A DNA stretch of 31,131 bases. Source: a virus. Taxonomy: Duplodnaviria; Heunggongvirae; Uroviricota; Caudoviricetes. Position numbers and translations under genes: made by a program. Shown piece by piece: positions 757 to 30,630 of the stretch. The stretch's first letter is position 1; each line of letters starts with the position of its first letter. A model generated the notes under the pieces. The model ran no database searches. It saw nothing but the letters and a program-made list of their open reading frames with translations, and had not been told where the DNA came from. The stretch covers positions 1 to 31,131 of IMG/VR virus record IMGVR_UViG_3300045988_022899, one strand, 5' to 3'.

Positions 757-860
757 GTTAAATCTCCAGATAGTCGCAGCACCCGTTGCGCCGCATATGT
801 GGTTATTCTATTACCTGAAAAACCACATATGGATAGAAAGACTGTGAATATGAATAGATA

Positions 861-1995: not shown

Positions 1996-2073
1996 TATCT
2001 TGCTTTCAGGTGATCAAGCGTTAAACGCAATCAACCAAATACGGTTGATTTTAATGTTTCTTCGCGCTTATCA

Positions 2074-2088: not shown

Positions 2089-2354
2089 ATTTACATCGCA
2101 CTCCTCTTGTGCCATAGTAATCGGGCACTGGCAAAATCCAGTGCCGGGATTGGCGTCCCGGATTACTACAGAGGCACATATGCCGCATAAGCGGTTTTTT
2201 TATGTGTAAAGCGCACCTATTCTATGGTGGGCTGTGTGGGGGCACCGAAAGGTGCGCCGGGTCCTTTGTAGCCGGTTACGCCAACCCTGCACAGTTCACC
2301 ACCAACCGATTGGCGTCGGTAGTGGTGATTAACCTAACTACAAAGGTGATCACT

Positions 2355-3041
2355 ATGACTGCTAACGTAACCCCATCTGTTTTTCATTTTGAATCAGAAG
2401 CAACCATTCGAGCCATTGTTATTGATGGAAATCCTTGGTTTGTTGCCAAAGACGTTATTAAAGCTCTTCAACTGACAAACCCCACTATGTCAATAAAATC
2501 TCTTGATGATGATGAAAGGGCTAAATTTAACTTAGGCCGTCAAGGCGAAACCAATATTATCAACGAGTCAGGCCTCTACACACTGATCCTCCGCTGCCGC
2601 GATGCGGTGACACCAGGCACTATCCCCTACCGCTTTCGTAAATGGGTTACAGGTGAGGTTCTTCCTCAGATCCGCCGCACCGGAAGTTACATTAAAAACT
2701 CGCTCCCGCAGGAAGAACGCATAAAGATGGTTGCCGACCAGGTAGCCAACGCCACGGCGTCAGCAGTGATGCAGGCGATGAAGATAGAGAACAAAACCTA
2801 CAGTGCCCCACTGAAGCCCGGCTACCGCAGTCTGATTCATTCTCCGTCTGGTGTTCTCGGCCTGACGGAGAACTCACTGCTGATGAATCTGCTGAACCAG
2901 TTACAGGAAGACGGGCACGACGTATCGGGCGCGGCGGCGGAGTTGACCACCATGTTCTGCTACATCGTCGGTGTGAGCAAATGCCTGCGTGATATCCAGA
3001 CGCACGCGGAGTACATCAACGACAAGGCAGGGTTCTTCTGA
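2355..3041 (+). CDS. ant: Phage antirepressor (Bro-N domain N-terminus plus C-terminal antirepressor domain)
   Basis: ATG at 2355 with AAGGTGA RBS; the track ORF has a 51-codon upstream extension. N-terminus FHFESEATIRAIVIDGNPWFVAKDVIKAL...ESGLYTLILRCR...VLPQIRRTG matches the Bro-N/antirepressor pattern from memory. Confidence 0.8.
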   Translation: MTANVTPSVFHFESEATIRAIVIDGNPWFVAKDVIKALQLTNPTMSIKSLDDDERAKFNLGRQGETNIINESGLYTLILRCRDAVTPGTIPYRFRKWVTGEVLPQIRRTGSYIKNSLPQEERIKMVADQVANATASAVMQAMKIENKTYSAPLKPGYRSLIHSPSGVLGLTENSLLMNLLNQLQEDGHDVSGAAAELTTMFCYIVGVSKCLRDIQTHAEYINDKAGFF

Positions 3042-4256: not shown

Positions 4257-4268
4257 GTGACATGTCAC
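4257..4268. repeat. 12-bp perfect palindrome GTGACATGTCAC (copy 1 of 3)
   Basis: Seen in sequence; overlaps the TGA stop of the 4265-4561 gene. Confidence 0.6.
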
Positions 4269-4561
4269 GTTCCTTTTCTGAATGCTAGCCATTCGAAAAA
4301 TGATGACATTCCACCGCAGACAATAGCAAAGATGATCCCACCAAAGAAGAGAAGGCCAGCCTGCCACCACTCCCACCGCCATACATCCACAGCGCCAACC
4401 ATACCAACAATCGCTCCAACAAATGGAATATAGCTCACGATGAAAGCAATGGGGGCTGCAATTATCCAGTGCAATCCCCACCATGATTCAAGCCCAGCCA
4501 TAATTGCTGCCAACTGAAAAAGACCAACGACGATATAAACAATGAATCCTATAGCTTGCAT
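4265..4561 (-). CDS. Small polytopic membrane protein (~98 aa, three predicted TM helices); holin-like or superinfection-exclusion-like
   Basis: ATG at 4561 with AGGTGA RBS (the track ORF starts at an upstream TTG); strongly hydrophobic segments. Confidence 0.55.
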   Translation of the reverse strand: MQAIGFIVYIVVGLFQLAAIMAGLESWWGLHWIIAAPIAFIVSYIPFVGAIVGMVGAVDVWRWEWWQAGLLFFGGIIFAIVCGGMSSFFEWLAFRKGT

Positions 4562-4574
4562 GTAGTCACCTAAT

Positions 4575-4748
4575 TTACCCAGTAAAAATAAGAGGTCTCC
4601 CCTCAATAAGGCTTGCAACAAGAACTACTCCCTGCACAACAAAGATGAACCAGCAAATAGCTTGAGTCTGAGGGTTAAGAAAATATTTGTAGCGGTCAAT
4701 AAATAACAATCCACCAGAAATTATCACACTCAAAATAATTAAAAACAC
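4575..4748 (-). CDS. Possible 57-aa hydrophobic peptide (two TM-like segments), GTG start
   Basis: Open frame directly after the TAA of the 4758-7232 gene, with AAGGAAG overlapping that stop; absent from the ORF track; speculative. Confidence 0.25.
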   Translation of the reverse strand: MFLIILSVIISGGLLFIDRYKYFLNPQTQAICWFIFVVQGVVLVASLIEGRPLIFTG

Positions 4749-20736: not shown

Positions 20737-20826
20737 ATCAATGACTCCGTACGCAATTAAATTATTACCAATTTAACCACATATGATTTATTTATCGTAG
20801 AAGGTTGACATTTAACGCGTGAATTA

Positions 20827-21163: not shown

Positions 21164-21240
21164 GTGGCATTAGCTCAGTTGGACAGAGCAACCGCCTTCT
21201 AAGCGGTTTGTCGCAGGTTCGAATCCTGCATGCCACGCCA
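21164..21240 (+). tRNA. tRNA-Arg (anticodon UCU)
   Basis: Hand-folded cloverleaf: 7-bp acceptor stem GTGGCAT/ATGCCAC, anticodon stem ACCGC/GCGGT with loop CTTCTAA, T-arm GCAGG-TTCGAAT-CCTGC, 3' GCCA; resembles E. coli argU. Confidence 0.85.
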
Positions 21241-21438: not shown

Positions 21439-21801
21439 ATGAACGACCAGCAAATCGAAAAAGAAATCGTTGAGAAAGGCAAAACAGCACCTCGTGTTAC
21501 CCCGGAACGCATTGAAGCTGTTATCTCAGGCGAGTTTTACTTTACCGGCGCGGATGGGTATCGCAGCTCACCGTTGTGGCTGAAGCAGGAAGAGCCTGAA
21601 CCGGCCCCGCAATCACTCGAACTGCTGACTTTCTGCGTACTGGTGCTGAAGAATGGCTTCACCGTCACCGGAGATAGTGCCTGTGCAAGTCCGGAAAATT
21701 TTGATGCAGAAATTGGTCGGAAGATTGCCCGGCAGAATGCTGTAAACAAAATCTGGATGCTCGAAGGTTACTTGCTGAAGCAGAAGCTAAGCGAGCAATA
21801 A
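21439..21801 (+). CDS. Small phage protein, possibly Gp49/Sf6 gp66-like family
   Basis: ATG at 21439 with AAGGTGAG RBS; 120 aa; family assignment from memory of similar ~100-aa phage proteins, unverified. Confidence 0.4.
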   Translation: MNDQQIEKEIVEKGKTAPRVTPERIEAVISGEFYFTGADGYRSSPLWLKQEEPEPAPQSLELLTFCVLVLKNGFTVTGDSACASPENFDAEIGRKIARQNAVNKIWMLEGYLLKQKLSEQ

Positions 21802-21805
21802 CACC

Positions 21806-21817
21806 GTGACATGTCAC
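21806..21817. repeat. 12-bp palindrome GTGACATGTCAC (copy 2 of 3)
   Basis: Seen in sequence, 5 bp after the stop at 21801 and just before a terminator hairpin. Confidence 0.6.
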
Positions 21818-21821
21818 AAAC

Positions 21822-21848
21822 AGCCAGCCGATGAGCTGGCTTTGTTTT
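21822..21848 (+). terminator. Intrinsic terminator AGCCAGC-CGATG-GCTGGCT plus TTGTTTT
   Basis: Seen in sequence. Confidence 0.6.
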
Positions 21849-21891: not shown

Positions 21892-23367
21892 TTAAGCATA
21901 GGGATCGTAATCTGTGATGGCCTTGCCTTTCTGGTTCTGCTGCCCGGGAATTCGCAGACGCTTCGACACAGGGAAAGCAAACGTCAGCAGTAGCGCATCG
22001 CCTTTACCCGGCGAACGCCCAAGCCGCTCCTTGATATCTTCCTTCGGTTCGATAACGATTTTACCGTCCACGCGAACTTTGTACTCTGCCGCCGACAGGT
22101 CGTCCGCTGTTTCCTGGTCATCCAGCATGCCGCCCAGCCTCAGCCATGTCTTGCATGAGTTGAACATCTCCCCACGCTTGTTAAGCATCTGCGGGTCAGT
22201 AGACGCGCCACCGAACGGAACAAGTTGCCATGTACGCCCCCAACCGTCACCGATTGACTTCAGACCGGTACCGTAACCGAAGTCGATGAACACCGCGTCA
22301 GCCTGGTACTGGTCTTCAAAGTCAGCGATACGCTTCGCCATAATCAGATCGTCGGTGGTCTTGTTACCAGTCCATAGCACCTTACTGTGCAGCCCCTGCC
22401 GCAGGTATATCACCGCGTCATCAACGCCTGAATATGCCGGGTCAACACCGATTATCACCGGAGCATGCGCCACCTGCGCAGCGGTTACCACCCGTTTCAT
22501 TGCCTCATCAGTAAGACCGGTAGGGATAAACTGCAATTCAGATGCATCAGGGAATATGCCGCGCACACGGATTTTAACGAAGTCGCTGTCTTCCCCGTAG
22601 TCATCAACCCATTTCTGCAACTGCTGTTTGTTAGTGCCTTCCACCGTCCGGCTGTCAATCTGCGCAGTTTTCCAGCGGTGTTTATATTTGCGGAAACATT
22701 CACGGAATCGCCCGGTATTACGCGTCGGGTTTCCGAACGCCACCCAGATAATCTCAGTGTCTTCGTCCGTTAGCGCACCTTCGGCAACTTCCCACACCAG
22801 ATCCGCAATGTTCGACGCTTCATCGAATACCACGATGATGCGTTTGCGCTCGTTGTGTAGTCCGGCGAATGCCTCAGTGTTGTGCTCAGACCAGGGGATT
22901 GCGTCAGCTCGCCACCGCTTGTCGTGCCCAGGATCATTGCTGTACATCGCGGTAGCGGTACAGGTAAACCAGTCTTTCGTGATAGCAAGGTTCGACCACT
23001 TGATAATTTCCGGCCAGGTCTTCGTTCGTAGCTGGTTGTCGGTGTTGGCGGTCACCACGACCTTACAATCCTCGCAAGTGGACATGCCCCAGTTGATCAG
23101 CATTGAGATGAATGCGGATTTACCAATACCGTGACCAGAAGCGCGTGCCAACATAAGCGGCTGATAGCGCGTCTCTGGATTCTGCAGGTGATCACGTATC
23201 TCTCGGAACGCATCAGCCTGCCACTGACGTGGGCCGGTAGCATGTGCCAGTTCAGTCCCCTCTTCCCCCCACGGGAACGCATAGAGGGCATAGCCAAGCG
23301 GATCGTGAGTGAACCCTGCAATATCCTCGATTAACTGCTCTTCAGGAGATAACGCTGTATCTGTCAC
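21892..23367 (-). CDS. Terminase large subunit, 491 aa
   Basis: Size, position after the small subunit, and nucleotide-binding/nuclease-type motifs (ARASGHGIGKSAF..., VVFDEASNI, IIGVDPAY); 4-nt overlap with the upstream gene. Confidence 0.8.
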   Translation of the reverse strand: MTDTALSPEEQLIEDIAGFTHDPLGYALYAFPWGEEGTELAHATGPRQWQADAFREIRDHLQNPETRYQPLMLARASGHGIGKSAFISMLINWGMSTCEDCKVVVTANTDNQLRTKTWPEIIKWSNLAITKDWFTCTATAMYSNDPGHDKRWRADAIPWSEHNTEAFAGLHNERKRIIVVFDEASNIADLVWEVAEGALTDEDTEIIWVAFGNPTRNTGRFRECFRKYKHRWKTAQIDSRTVEGTNKQQLQKWVDDYGEDSDFVKIRVRGIFPDASELQFIPTGLTDEAMKRVVTAAQVAHAPVIIGVDPAYSGVDDAVIYLRQGLHSKVLWTGNKTTDDLIMAKRIADFEDQYQADAVFIDFGYGTGLKSIGDGWGRTWQLVPFGGASTDPQMLNKRGEMFNSCKTWLRLGGMLDDQETADDLSAAEYKVRVDGKIVIEPKEDIKERLGRSPGKGDALLLTFAFPVSKRLRIPGQQNQKGKAITDYDPYA

Positions 23368-23957
23368 TGATTACCATCCTGACGTTCTTTGAGTCGCTTC
23401 CTGGCTGCTGCTATGCGATCAGCAATTGTCACATTCACATTAACATCCAGGCGTTCTTTGAATGCGTTGACATCAACATGCTTACCAATCAGCTCAAGGT
23501 TCTTCACCTTGTCAGGCCATTTAATTTTTTTGAGGATTGTCTCTATCGAATCCTCGTTCATGTTCATGATGGTCGATGACAGATCAAAGCCACTAAGCGT
23601 AGTGCGCCAGATTTTCGGCCACTCACGGATTGGTTTAAGGCTCCCATCGTCGTTGAGGATGTCGATCACGTCCATCTGGTCGATCTCCACCAGGCGCATG
23701 AGAACGTAATCAGCACTGACGCGCATTCGTTTGTTGCGCTCTTCCATCAGCTCGGCAATCCGTTTTTGAATGCGTTCATCGCGCATCATGACACTGGCTT
23801 TAACTGCCGCTGTATTTGGGGAGAATCCTGCGTTAATCGCTGCCTGAGTCTGGTTTTCAGGCGTTTTGATGTATGACTGGCAATAAGCCTCCTGCATTGC
23901 TGTTAGTGGCTTAAATTGCGTTGATTTGCGTTTATAGGTTTTAGGTTCAGCAGGCAT
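23364..23957 (-). CDS. Terminase small subunit
   Basis: Likely start at the second of two ATGs (23957) with GGTGG RBS; the track ORF N-terminal extension runs through a terminator hairpin. Called by position and size; basic helical N-terminal region. Confidence 0.6.
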   Translation of the reverse strand: MPAEPKTYKRKSTQFKPLTAMQEAYCQSYIKTPENQTQAAINAGFSPNTAAVKASVMMRDERIQKRIAELMEERNKRMRVSADYVLMRLVEIDQMDVIDILNDDGSLKPIREWPKIWRTTLSGFDLSSTIMNMNEDSIETILKKIKWPDKVKNLELIGKHVDVNAFKERLDVNVNVTIADRIAAARKRLKERQDGNQ

Positions 23958-24002
23958 CATAACCACCGTGGTAATAGTTACCGTTGTGGTAATAGTACCA
24001 TG

Positions 24003-24030
24003 CAAAATAAAGCCGCCATAGTTGGCGGCA
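24003..24030 (-). terminator. Hairpin GCCGCC-N6-GGCGGC plus TTTATTTT on the minus strand, immediately upstream of the terminase genes
   Basis: Seen in sequence; between the stop of the last early gene (24035) and the small-terminase start. Confidence 0.5.
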
Positions 24031-24034
24031 GTAT

Positions 24035-24247
24035 TCAAAGTCCATCAAATTCATCGTAAAAACTCTCGTCAAGATACCCTTCCCATTTACCGCGAATGAA
24101 AATTACATCCTCGCCGCAAGGGTGCTGACTGTCGATAACTATATCCCTCCTGGCGCAACCATACTTATGCATGAGAAATTTAACCTCTTTCGGAAAATTT
24201 GCTGAGTTATCTCTCATATCTTCAAGGTCGTAGCGTATTTTTGGCAT
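24035..24247 (-). CDS. Small early-region protein, unknown function (70 aa)
   Basis: ATG at 24247 with AAGGTG RBS (the track ORF starts at a GTG inside the palindrome). Confidence 0.45.
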   Translation of the reverse strand: MPKIRYDLEDMRDNSANFPKEVKFLMHKYGCARRDIVIDSQHPCGEDVIFIRGKWEGYLDESFYDEFDGL

Positions 24248-24256
24248 AACACCTTC

Positions 24257-24268
24257 GTGACATGTCAC
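24257..24268. repeat. 12-bp palindrome GTGACATGTCAC (copy 3 of 3)
   Basis: Seen in sequence; overlaps the TGA stop of the 24265-24603 gene. Confidence 0.6.
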
Positions 24269-24603
24269 ACTATTAATTTCGTTTCATGCCAGCCTTTAGT
24301 CACCCAGCATTGCGAGTCACCATTACACGGGCATGAATTAACTGGAACTCTCTCGCCGCACTTACCGCAACGTTTTCTGCTGATCGATTTTATACGCCCG
24401 CGCACGCGTGCATCATCCTGGCGGATCAGTAACGCTATATACTCACCAAATTCGTAAGGCGCACGCCCGGGGCGACGCGCGGCACAGTTACGCTCCAGCA
24501 TTTCAATTTCCTGAGCATCAAGCACAATCTCCAGCTTACGCACACCAGATGCAGCTTGTCTGGCTCTCTGAGCGGCTTTGCGCTCTGCTGCTGATTTAGC
24601 CAT
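24265..24603 (-). CDS. Small basic Cys-cluster (zinc-finger-like) protein, unknown function
   Basis: ATG at 24603 overlapping the upstream stop; CGKCG...NSCPC cysteine cluster. Confidence 0.45.
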   Translation of the reverse strand: MAKSAAERKAAQRARQAASGVRKLEIVLDAQEIEMLERNCAARRPGRAPYEFGEYIALLIRQDDARVRGRIKSISRKRCGKCGERVPVNSCPCNGDSQCWVTKGWHETKLIV

Positions 24604-24877
24604 CAATATTCACCTTTATCGCGAACACCTTTACCGGTTTATCTCCGAAGTGCGGATGTGTGATTGTCTTGATTTCATATCCGTCATACGGAACATCAAT
24701 TCTACGGCTGGAATCGTCGCGCTTCGGATATCCCTTTGTGATAATCAGGCGGTCATACTTACGGTTAACGAGGCGCTTATTCCAGTAGTCATTACACAGG
24801 CGATACTCTTCCGTTTTCTCGCCTGACTTCATCTGGTCGAAATATTCACCGTTAACTGCCAGTTGCAGGTTAGCCAC
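24596..24877 (-). CDS. Small protein, possibly ASCH/PUA-like fold
   Basis: GTG start at 24877 with strong AGGAGG RBS (the track ORF is extended upstream); fold guess from the EYFDQMKSGEKTEEYRL...YDRLIITKGYP pattern, unverified. Confidence 0.35.
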   Translation of the reverse strand: MANLQLAVNGEYFDQMKSGEKTEEYRLCNDYWNKRLVNRKYDRLIITKGYPKRDDSSRRIDVPYDGYEIKTITHPHFGDKPVKVFAIKVNIDG

Positions 24878-27081: not shown

Positions 27082-27426
27082 TCAGAACTCTTCGATGTTC
27101 CAGCCGCCACCTGCTTTCTTTGGTTTAACCGTTACCCCGATGATTCGGAACGGATACTGATCTGCGGCGACTTTGGTTTTCACCCTGGCGTCGTCGGTCC
27201 AGAAACCTTTCACTTCGTGCAGTTCCATCTCTCCGGTGGCGAGCATCACAGCGAAATCTGGCGTATAGAACGTGTTGTCAGCTAACCGCAGCTTGATACC
27301 CTCGAATCGATACCAGGCGATTTCCCCTGCACGTTTACGCAGCTCAAGGTGCTGGCAATACGCAGATTCTGTTTTGTTCATCTGGCCTGTTTTGAGTCGA
27401 CCAAGAGCCTGTATCTGTTTTCTCAT
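27082..27426 (-). CDS. DUF1064-like PD-(D/E)xK-fold phage protein
   Basis: GAGG RBS; motif YTPDFAV...ELHEVKG consistent with a restriction-endonuclease-like fold; family assignment from memory. Confidence 0.4.
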   Translation of the reverse strand: MRKQIQALGRLKTGQMNKTESAYCQHLELRKRAGEIAWYRFEGIKLRLADNTFYTPDFAVMLATGEMELHEVKGFWTDDARVKTKVAADQYPFRIIGVTVKPKKAGGGWNIEEF

Positions 27427-27429
27427 GAT

Positions 27430-27444
27430 TTACCTCTAAGGTAA
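27430..27444. promoter_or_regulatory. Operator palindrome TTACCTCTAAGGTAA overlapping the RBS of the 27426 gene
   Basis: Seen in sequence. Confidence 0.45.
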
Positions 27445-27491
27445 TTAAAAACCACATAAGACACGAAATCAATAGATCTAAGAACATTTTG

Positions 27492-27506
27492 TTACCTATT
27501 GGGTAA
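27492..27506. promoter_or_regulatory. Operator palindrome TTACCTATTGGGTAA
   Basis: Seen in sequence, in the intergenic region downstream of the P-like gene. Confidence 0.5.
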
Positions 27507-27517
27507 CTATTGAGGCG

Positions 27518-29357: not shown

Positions 29358-29507
29358 GGTAAGCCCTGTTATTAGTATTGGGATTACGGTCATTTTGTGC
29401 TGACACAAAAAAAAGATCAACCATATTTGGTTTTTTATTACCTTTGAGGTACGAATAGATATGAAAAGACCGCCGGGTGGCGGTCTACAGAGGGTTGTAG
29501 CTGGATA

Positions 29508-29738
29508 TCATGAGTAGAAGAAGTATGCCAGTTCTGCTTTTGAGCGCAGCCATTGTCTTGTTTTACAGGCTTTAAAAAGCCCATTCATCAATACTTTACC
29601 TGGCATTTTGCGCTTACCTGTTAAGTGAGTCTGGATATAGTGACTCGTCGTTCCGGCTTCCTGTGCGAAGGCTTCACGCTCATCCGGAGTAAGTGCAAGC
29701 CAGTGCTTTTTGAAATCGAAATGTCCGTTATCGCTCAT
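29508..29738 (-). CDS. Cro-like small HTH regulator (YdaS-like), first gene of the leftward early operon
   Basis: 76 aa; HTH-like segment EAFAQEAGTTSHYIQTHLTG; divergent from the repressor across an operator-rich intergenic region. Confidence 0.6.
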   Translation of the reverse strand: MSDNGHFDFKKHWLALTPDEREAFAQEAGTTSHYIQTHLTGKRKMPGKVLMNGLFKACKTRQWLRSKAELAYFFYS

Positions 29739-29774
29739 AGCTATTGCCTGATATTTATTTCAGATAATAAATAT

Positions 29775-29837
29775 TCACCCATAAGGTAACAAAAATCAAG
29801 GATAGTTACCCATGAGGTGCATTTACCTGTTGGGTAA
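29775..29837. promoter_or_regulatory. Tripartite operator region with divergent promoters between the cro-like and repressor genes
   Basis: Three sites seen in sequence: TCACCCATAAGGTAA (29775-29789), TTACCCATGAGGTGC (29806-29820), TTACCTGTTGGGTAA (29823-29837). Confidence 0.6.
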
Positions 29838-29892
29838 TATTGCTTTAAATTGAATCATCTACTGATTCATATATGAGGCGATTTTCCAGAAA

Positions 29893-30522: not shown

Positions 30523-30534
30523 TTGCCTGTTCGA

Positions 30535-30611
30535 TTACCTAACGGGTAATTTTTTTAACTCATATCTATTGACATCAAACCAGATACGCATAATTATTAC
30601 CTCAACGGTAA
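30535..30611 (+). promoter_or_regulatory. PL-like rightward promoter flanked by two operators
   Basis: TTACCTAACGGGTAA (30535-30549), -35 TTGACA (30569-30574), AT-rich -10 near 30591-30597, TTACCTCAACGGTAA (30597-30611) over the predicted start site. Confidence 0.55.
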
Positions 30612-30630
30612 CATACCGAGGTAACAAGTT

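Follow-up and report, generated by a model that had tools for sequence, protein, structure and literature searches.

The small-terminase gene terS of a Uetakevirus prophage is preceded by an intrinsic terminator and by two tandem palindromes that are probably immunity operators, through which the phage repressor would silence terS and terL in the lysogen; on the basis of sequence comparison, we put the probability of this reading at about 0.7. The prophage is contained in IMG/VR virus record IMGVR_UViG_3300045988_022899, which was analysed over its whole length of 31,131 nucleotides (referred to here as the window). It is epsilon15/phiV10-like (Uetakevirus), with genes mainly on the minus strand, and over 23300–24700 it shares 98% identity with podophages of the epsilon15/phiV10 type, among them PAS61, TL-2011b, ZX5 and phiV10. 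The predicted functional unit upstream of terS is a 17-bp palindrome, ATTACC-N5-GGTAAY, present twice at a centre-to-centre distance of 18 bp (O_a and O_b, Table 1), and not the 11-bp direct repeat described in the initial annotation. A terminator combined with dispersed repressor operators is a known kind of element, found here in an informative place.

Both copies of the 11-bp repeat were confirmed as exact matches to GTGGTAATAGT (minus strand ACTATTACCAC) at positions 23968–23978 and 23986–23996, with a start-to-start spacing of 18 nt. No further copies with up to one mismatch are present in the window, where 0.26 are expected, and 4 of 100 shuffled sequences reach two copies; the repeat per se is only modestly beyond chance. 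Many close relatives deviate from the 11-mer (ACAATTACCAC, ACTATTACCAT and others) but keep the ATTACC and GGTAAC arms invariant. The direct repeat is a by-product, in the form found in the E. coli lineage, of two palindromes standing side by side. The repeats had also been described as overlapping the ribosome-binding site; the proximal repeat in fact abuts the Shine-Dalgarno (SD) sequence GGTGG (23967–23963) without overlap, and it is the proximal 17-bp palindrome that holds it. The start codon of terS assumed in the initial annotation stands, since it is kept in relatives, and an ATG 3 nt further upstream (23960) is not conserved.

The region upstream of terS was compared in phage records, in 11 prophage loci of other genera and in 80 IMG/VR contigs of the E. 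coli lineage; the TerS matches in IMG/VR are all 100% identical proteins, and are thus informative on micro-variation and not on depth. In 11 divergent lineages, the arms of the palindromes upstream of terS are invariant, whereas the N5 spacers (ACAAC, AAAAC, ATAAC, ATATT, TGCAT, TTCAT and, in Samsonia, GCGCC) and the linker of 1–3 nt vary freely. Fixed arms and variable spacers are likewise seen in 37 micro-variants of the E. coli lineage. Even in the Samsonia prophage, whose TerS is 66% identical, ATTACC-GCGCC-GGTAAT is still found upstream of terS.

The palindrome is not confined to terS. Its core, TTACC-N5-GGTAA, occurs 10 times in the window (0.01 expected), and ATTACC-N5-GGTAAT with up to one mismatch occurs 11 times, against 0.07 in shuffled sequences (shuffle maximum 1). 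A de novo enumeration of palindromes with 5-bp arms ranked this motif first in the window, TL-2011b, 66FD, BUCT554, an epsilon15-type phage and Tyrion. A position weight matrix (PWM) was derived from 28 sites in three other phages, none of them a terS site; it gives 13 sites in the window a score of 15.5 or higher (95th percentile of shuffle maxima 14.1), all of them intergenic, and O_a scores 19.7. A special late-control element is not supported: the repeats are two copies of a 17-bp palindrome that has 13 or more intergenic sites, those of the cI-cro region among them. Sites for a terS-specific late activator were rejected on the same grounds, as the dispersed palindrome, and not the unique 11-mer, is the actual unit.

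A palindrome heads each transcription unit examined, namely PR/PRM, the PL-like promoter, the region after the cro terminator, the nin-like block, the ant/C4 module, the tRNA/moron unit and the tailspike gene, and the syntenic positions are occupied in all relatives compared. One of the three palindromes of the OR-like region overlaps the -35 hexamer and spacer of a PR-like promoter (29792–29764). In 66FD, the epsilon15-type phage and BUCT554, both the tailspike gene and the holin genes have a palindrome about 105 nt upstream; TL-2011b has one at the site that matches the tailspike position. This placement is as expected for an immunity operator; neither a packaging signal nor a late element specific to terS would be expected to show it. 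The proximal palindrome before the nin-like block stops 2 nt short of the ATG at 27426, for which it provides the SD sequence; O_b at terS has the same operator-SD-ATG design. The nin and PL-like pairs are both spaced by 62 bp and are laid out alike (operator, 18 nt, -35, 17 nt, then a -10 that is fused to the second operator). In 66FD, BUCT554, the epsilon15-type phage and Tyrion the spacing is retained as well, which points to cooperative binding or looping.

The immunity repressor is presumed to be the protein that binds the palindromes. Its sequence contains a Pfam HTH_3 domain (helix-turn-helix, HTH) at residues 106–147 and a weaker, below-cut-off YdaS-like match at residues 21–61, and lacks an S24 peptidase (autocleavage) domain, which fits anti-repressor-driven induction. 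An identical protein acts as the repressor in phage ZX5, where its over-expression cut holin and endolysin transcripts by more than 99.9% (PMC9782041). This drop is consistent with the operator model but non-discriminating. Additionally, Rfam matches to isrK (2125–2201) and C4 antisense RNA (2220–2306) are found on the plus strand directly upstream of a Bro-N anti-repressor gene (2202–3041); the set constitutes a P1/P7-type immI module with two operator palindromes ahead of it.

The minus-strand terminator proposed in the initial annotation was borne out. The hairpin, listed by a terminator scan and reproduced by RNA folding, has seven base pairs (six of them G-C) followed by a T-run, and begins 5 nt past the TGA (24037–24035) of an upstream ORF of 77 residues. 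It is strong, and is conserved upstream of terS both in the compared phages of E. coli and Salmonella (66FD, TL-2011b and Tyrion among them) and in 8 of the 11 prophage loci of other genera; it may credibly be taken to end the rightward early operon. The hairpin is missing in BUCT554, Erwinia dacicola and Pseudocitrobacter, and all three of these lineages retain the palindromes.

A promoter-like register may be embedded in the tandem palindromes. It consists of a -35-like RTGNTA, 16–18 nt, and a -10-like hexamer drawn from the junction of both palindromes; in the window, O_a would occupy the spacer and O_b would lie over the predicted start. The homologous register reads GTGATA-18-TAAAAT (9 of 12 matches) in BUCT554 and Erwinia dacicola, and that of BUCT554 is called by the promoter scan; in 66FD it reads GTGTTA-16-AATTAT. 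All 11 lineages have the TG and TA of the -35-like hexamer unchanged, including those with unrelated sequence further upstream.

Binding of the two-HTH repressor to O_a and O_b would keep terS and terL off in the lysogen. This could be achieved by promoter occlusion, with the repressor covering a weak promoter (its spacer at O_a, its start site and the SD sequence at O_b), or by a road-block, with the bound repressor halting polymerases that escape the terminator or come from upstream accessory-gene promoters. One or both versions may apply. The palindromes at terS and the one after cro (29437) each follow a terminator. In some relatives (BUCT554, 1790–2190; Kp4865-1), a umuD-like gene is inserted between terS and the gene for a Cys-cluster protein, and carries a consensus LexA box, TACTGTTTAAATGTACAGTA, within a TTGACT-17-TATACT promoter. 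Where the hairpin is absent, this LexA-controlled gene reads toward terS, and the bound repressor would be the sole barrier there. The phage encodes an Ant anti-repressor, and upon inactivation of the repressor the weak promoter, terminator read-through or both would switch on the packaging genes; a Q-type antiterminator would not be required.

Several observations weigh against silencing by this route. The right arm of O_b in the window is GGTTAT, and its PWM score of 8.9 is below the mean shuffle maximum of 9.2. O_b has one mismatch to ATTACC-N5-GGTAAT and is degenerate in the window lineage; its score is comparable to that of the weak middle OR site (7.3), and it is a better palindrome in relatives, for example ATTACT-CAGGT-GGTAAT in BUCT554. 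The hexamers of the putative promoter match the consensus at only 6 of 12 positions in the window, below the threshold of the scan, and a start at this register would leave a leader of only about 10 nt. All Uetakevirus relatives examined use a common operator motif despite strongly diverged repressors, which are only 42% identical by the figure of the ZX5 authors (PMC9782041), and no heteroimmune relative with a different repressor/operator pair was found among the Uetakevirus relatives compared. Furthermore, a Cro-like protein acting on the same sites, as in lambda, would damp terS during lytic growth, which is awkward for a late operon, and late timing is left without explanation.

The initial annotation reasoned that late transcription must either start downstream of the hairpin or antiterminate through it. 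This dichotomy is logically valid, but the lambda-like PR'-tR'-Q logic that it implies is unsupported, as no promoter-like site was found between the Cys-cluster gene and the hairpin, and three lineages lack the hairpin but keep the palindromes. The corresponding alternative to repressor-mediated silencing is that the hairpin is a tR'-like terminator read through with the aid of an antiterminator, such as the Cys-cluster protein, the repeats being its site or a late-promoter element. The strength and conservation of the terminator agree with this alternative, as does the position of the Cys-cluster gene, which is the conserved last early gene before terS (accessory genes intervene in the window and in some relatives). 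In addition, a second palindrome, GTGACATGTCAC (GTGAC-NN-GTCAC), travels with this gene in unrelated phages and lies upstream of the focal and two other terminators. We nevertheless consider the alternative unlikely. As had been noted initially, no Q-type antiterminator, holin or endolysin was found in the early block (none of 11 minus-strand ORFs between 24035 and 29738, by Pfam, PHROG and NCBIfam), and the promoter scan gave no minus-strand promoter-like site between 24030 and 24600, that is, from the Cys-cluster gene to the hairpin, a distance of just 22 nt in 66FD. The repeats belong to a dispersed operator family and are not specific to terS, the three hairpin-less lineages retain them, and the Cys-cluster protein has no recognisable fold or family. 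A link between this protein and the ATTACC palindromes is ruled out by AH07 and Omnitron, which have the gene without the motif. The suggestion that the lysis genes lie outside the window agrees with the relatives: holin, endolysin and Rz follow the tailspike gene in TL-2011b, 66FD, BUCT554 and Tyrion and, since the tailspike gene of the window runs off its left edge, the cassette would be beyond it.

The Cys-cluster protein gave no match in Pfam, NCBIfam or the PDB by sequence and profile searches; the label of its PHROG family, 536, is merely 'transcriptional regulator', and its AlphaFold model is of low confidence (mean predicted local distance difference test score 59.8), too poor to justify a fold search. 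Two of the three copies of GTGACATGTCAC enclose the TGA stop of a gene (the Cys-cluster gene and ORF 4265–4621), and all three are soon followed, along the transcribed direction, by an intrinsic terminator: the focal hairpin and those at 21822–21841 (+) and 4256–4239 (-). The distance from this palindrome to the focal hairpin is 226 nt in the window, 40 nt in TL-2011b and 22 nt in 66FD, and syntenic copies are present in 66FD, BUCT554 and TL-2011b. The Cys-cluster homologues of AH07 (Pantoea), N15, phiKO2 and a Yersinia P2-like phage also keep the stop-codon palindrome, whereas that of a Vibrio phage lacks it. Its position ahead of the focal hairpin keeps alive a small chance that the Cys-cluster protein acts on the terminator.

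The slot between the Cys-cluster gene and terS is a hot spot for the insertion of accessory genes. The small accessory ORF found there in the window is often represented by an 8-codon remnant, M-x-DEFDGF-stop (window counterpart 24035–24061): 27 loci have the full ORF, 50 a remnant of 40 nt, 5 a frameshifted remnant and 3 neither. The SD sequence and start of the remnant are kept, it ends 5 nt before the terminator stem, and its differences between genera are mostly synonymous. A role for this mini-ORF as an attenuation leader is weakened by the 1-nt deletion that shifts its frame in five loci and by its absence from 66FD-type phages.

Translational control is a less probable alternative to operator-based silencing: in a read-through transcript, the palindromes would fold into a long hairpin that buries the SD sequence and AUG of terS. 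The minimum free energy of 24045–23945 is -36.9 kcal/mol (z = -5.9), and a second stem-loop pairs 24003–23950, covering GGUGG and AUG; tandem DNA palindromes, however, fold in this way by construction. The consensus fold of the 11 lineages reaches only -6.1 kcal/mol, with a covariation term of -0.29 and one pair with a double change, the linker varies between 1 and 3 nt, the terS element has no match in Rfam, and the identical motif is found in promoter contexts that are not transcribed, such as OR. A structured RNA was rejected on the lack of an Rfam match and of covariation in the consensus fold.

It is very improbable that the repeats are a packaging recognition site bound by TerS, like the R sites of lambda cosB or the pacL boxes of SPP1. 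Their location directly upstream of a PF03592 small terminase and the conservation of half-site arms, which is of a DNA-binding type, would suit such a site. A pac or cos site should be unique, whereas at least 13 strong copies are present in 31 kb, mostly at promoters and including the repressor/cro and PL-like regions; terS itself contains no extra copies, and the record starts of relatives near terS fall on gene boundaries and look arbitrary. A TerS-binding site was rejected because the motif is dispersed. Least credible of all is an N-terminal extension of TerS to 224 residues from a TTG at 24038 (residues NTAANYGGFILHGTITTTVTITTVV): the frame is open from this codon and is so annotated in the GenBank entries of phiV10, PAS61 and 66FD, but the extension would span the terminator hairpin, has no SD sequence before the TTG (GGTGG is 5 nt before the ATG at 23957), corresponds in three lineages to the end of another gene, shows mostly residue-altering differences between the window and 66FD, and is ruled out by frame-breaking indels of 1 and 2 nt among relatives between the hairpin and the ATG.

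Table 1. Coordinates of terS, its upstream elements and related features of the window.
Feature	Position	Strand	Remarks
terS, small terminase, 197 residues	23364–23957	-	PF03592 (E = 1e-29); phrog_51; ATG 23957–23955
O_b, proximal 17-bp palindrome, putative operator	23959–23975		minus strand ATTACC-ACGGT-GGTTAT; holds the SD sequence; ends 1 nt before the terS ATG
O_a, distal 17-bp palindrome, putative operator	23977–23993		minus strand ATTACC-ACAAC-GGTAAC; holds most of the distal repeat; core TTACC-N5-GGTAA exact
Hypothetical weak sigma-70-type promoter (predicted)	23974–24001	-	-35 ATGGTA (24001–23996), 16-nt spacer, -10 AACTAT (23979–23974)
Intrinsic terminator	24002–24029	-	stem GCCGCCA (24029–24023)/TGGCGGC (24018–24012), loop ACTA, tail TTTATTTTGC (24011–24002)
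Small accessory ORF	24035–24268	-	phrog_1541; probable start ATG 24247, 70 residues; between Cys-cluster gene and terminator
Cys-cluster protein, 112 residues	24265–24603	-	phrog_536; homologue of N15 gp46
Palindrome GTGACATGTCAC	24257–24268, 21806–21817, 4257–4268		three copies in the window, 0.01 expected
Immunity repressor gene, 194 residues	29893–30477	+	two HTH motifs; phrog_8
OR-like region, three palindromes	29774–29790, 29805–29821, 29822–29838		between repressor and cro-like genes; 29805–29821 weak
PL-like promoter with two palindromes	30534–30612	+	TTGACA-17-AATTAT; palindromes 30534–30550 and 30596–30612, 62 bp apart; downstream one fused to -10
Palindrome pair before nin-like block	27429–27507	-	27491–27507 and 27429–27445
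Palindrome after terminator following cro	29437
Palindromes upstream of isrK/C4 RNA and ant	1980, 2073
Palindrome after ant	3107
Palindrome at tRNA/Sf6-gp66-like unit	20826		plus-strand unit
Palindrome upstream of tailspike gene	860–876
terL	21892–23367	-	late unit with terS
Tailspike gene	ATG 755	-	extends past left window edge

terS and terL are followed by the portal, capsid and internal-virion genes. To the right of terS are lambda-P-like and O-like replication genes, a cro-like gene (29508–29738) and the two-HTH repressor gene. A tRNA gene (21164–21237) and a gene of the N4-gp49/Sf6-gp66 family (21439–21801), both on the plus strand, are located between terL and the portal block and oppose the late genes; the operator at 20826 adjoins a TTGACA hexamer upstream of this unit. 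A further motif, CCAWATRTGGTT, has seven matches with up to one mismatch (about 0.5 expected), including 821–832 (-), 20775–20786 (-), 29419–29430 (-) and 2035–2046 (+). Ahead of the tailspike gene, the portal block, Pant and the post-cro region, the motif is flanked by the operator on one side and by -10-like hexamers on the other; relatives also have it upstream of the holin block and, in TL-2011b, in the spacer of the nin promoter. It is absent at terS, and may serve late promoters as the site of an activator or host factor.

Compared with known systems, the palindromes most resemble the OR and OL operators of lambdoid phages (lambda, P22 and 434, bound by CI and Cro), which are also about 17 bp long and dyad-symmetric, with conserved arms and variable centres. 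As in these phages, three copies are found between the divergent repressor and cro genes, overlapping PR, and more at a PL-like promoter. The window differs in having many copies far from the immunity region, two of them right before terS, and relatives carry copies before the tailspike and lysis genes; lambda CI is not known to act on the late operon. The repressor also differs from lambdoid CI in its two HTH motifs and in lacking a RecA-cleavable S24 domain.

Phage P1 likewise has many scattered operators that place separate operons under one repressor, C1, as is presumed here, and its immI region (c4-icd-ant) also combines a C4 antisense RNA with an ant module behind operators. C1 is unrelated to the repressor of the window. 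The P1 operator is an asymmetric 17-mer and the late operons of P1 are activated by Lpa; no Lpa-like protein was identified in the window. The 'stoperators' bound by gp71 of mycobacteriophage L5, reportedly described by Brown et al. in EMBO J in 1997, are asymmetric 13-mers that act in one orientation and lie in short intergenic regions of the prophage. Like these, the sites in the window are scattered and intergenic. The post-cro site (29437) and the terS pair follow terminators and lack strong promoters, an arrangement that would suit an elongation block. Unlike stoperators, the sites are palindromic, and several others clearly overlap promoters.

The arrangement shares with lambda PR'-tR'-Q a terminator between the early region and the first packaging gene, and differs from it in having no Q gene, no promoter or qut-like region before the hairpin, and no lysis genes between the terminator and terS, these being located at the far end, after the tailspike gene, in relatives. 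Lambda cosB and SPP1 pacL also consist of short repeated elements directly upstream of the small-terminase gene; the motif of the window is not unique and cannot by itself specify packaging initiation.

No paper describing operators, late promoters or genome ends of Uetakevirus was found in the accessible literature. Mention of the dispersed 17-bp palindromes may already have been made in the epsilon15 genome paper by Kropinski et al. in 2007, and the claim to novelty is accordingly modest. For annotation, several GenBank terS entries extend through the terminator and operators; those of phiV10, PAS61 and 66FD are about 27 codons too long, beginning upstream of the hairpin and running through both palindromes.

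A broader proposal, which we regard as speculative and rather improbable, is that Uetakeviruses have neither a Q-type antiterminator nor a dedicated late activator, with the immunity repressor gating terS-terL, the portal/structural block, the tailspike and lysis directly, through a separate operator for each late unit, and that the Cys-cluster protein is a hitherto undescribed, DNA-site-directed modulator of termination acting through GTGAC-NN-GTCAC. The present results shift the question from a hidden Q-like factor to how late timing is achieved when the packaging, tailspike and lysis units each start with an immunity operator. If the repressor does bind before terS, these phages would possess a distributed silencing network of the P1 or L5 type on a lambdoid-looking immunity region, which would matter for predicting the induction behaviour of such prophages and for engineering phiV10-type reporter phages against E. 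coli O157.

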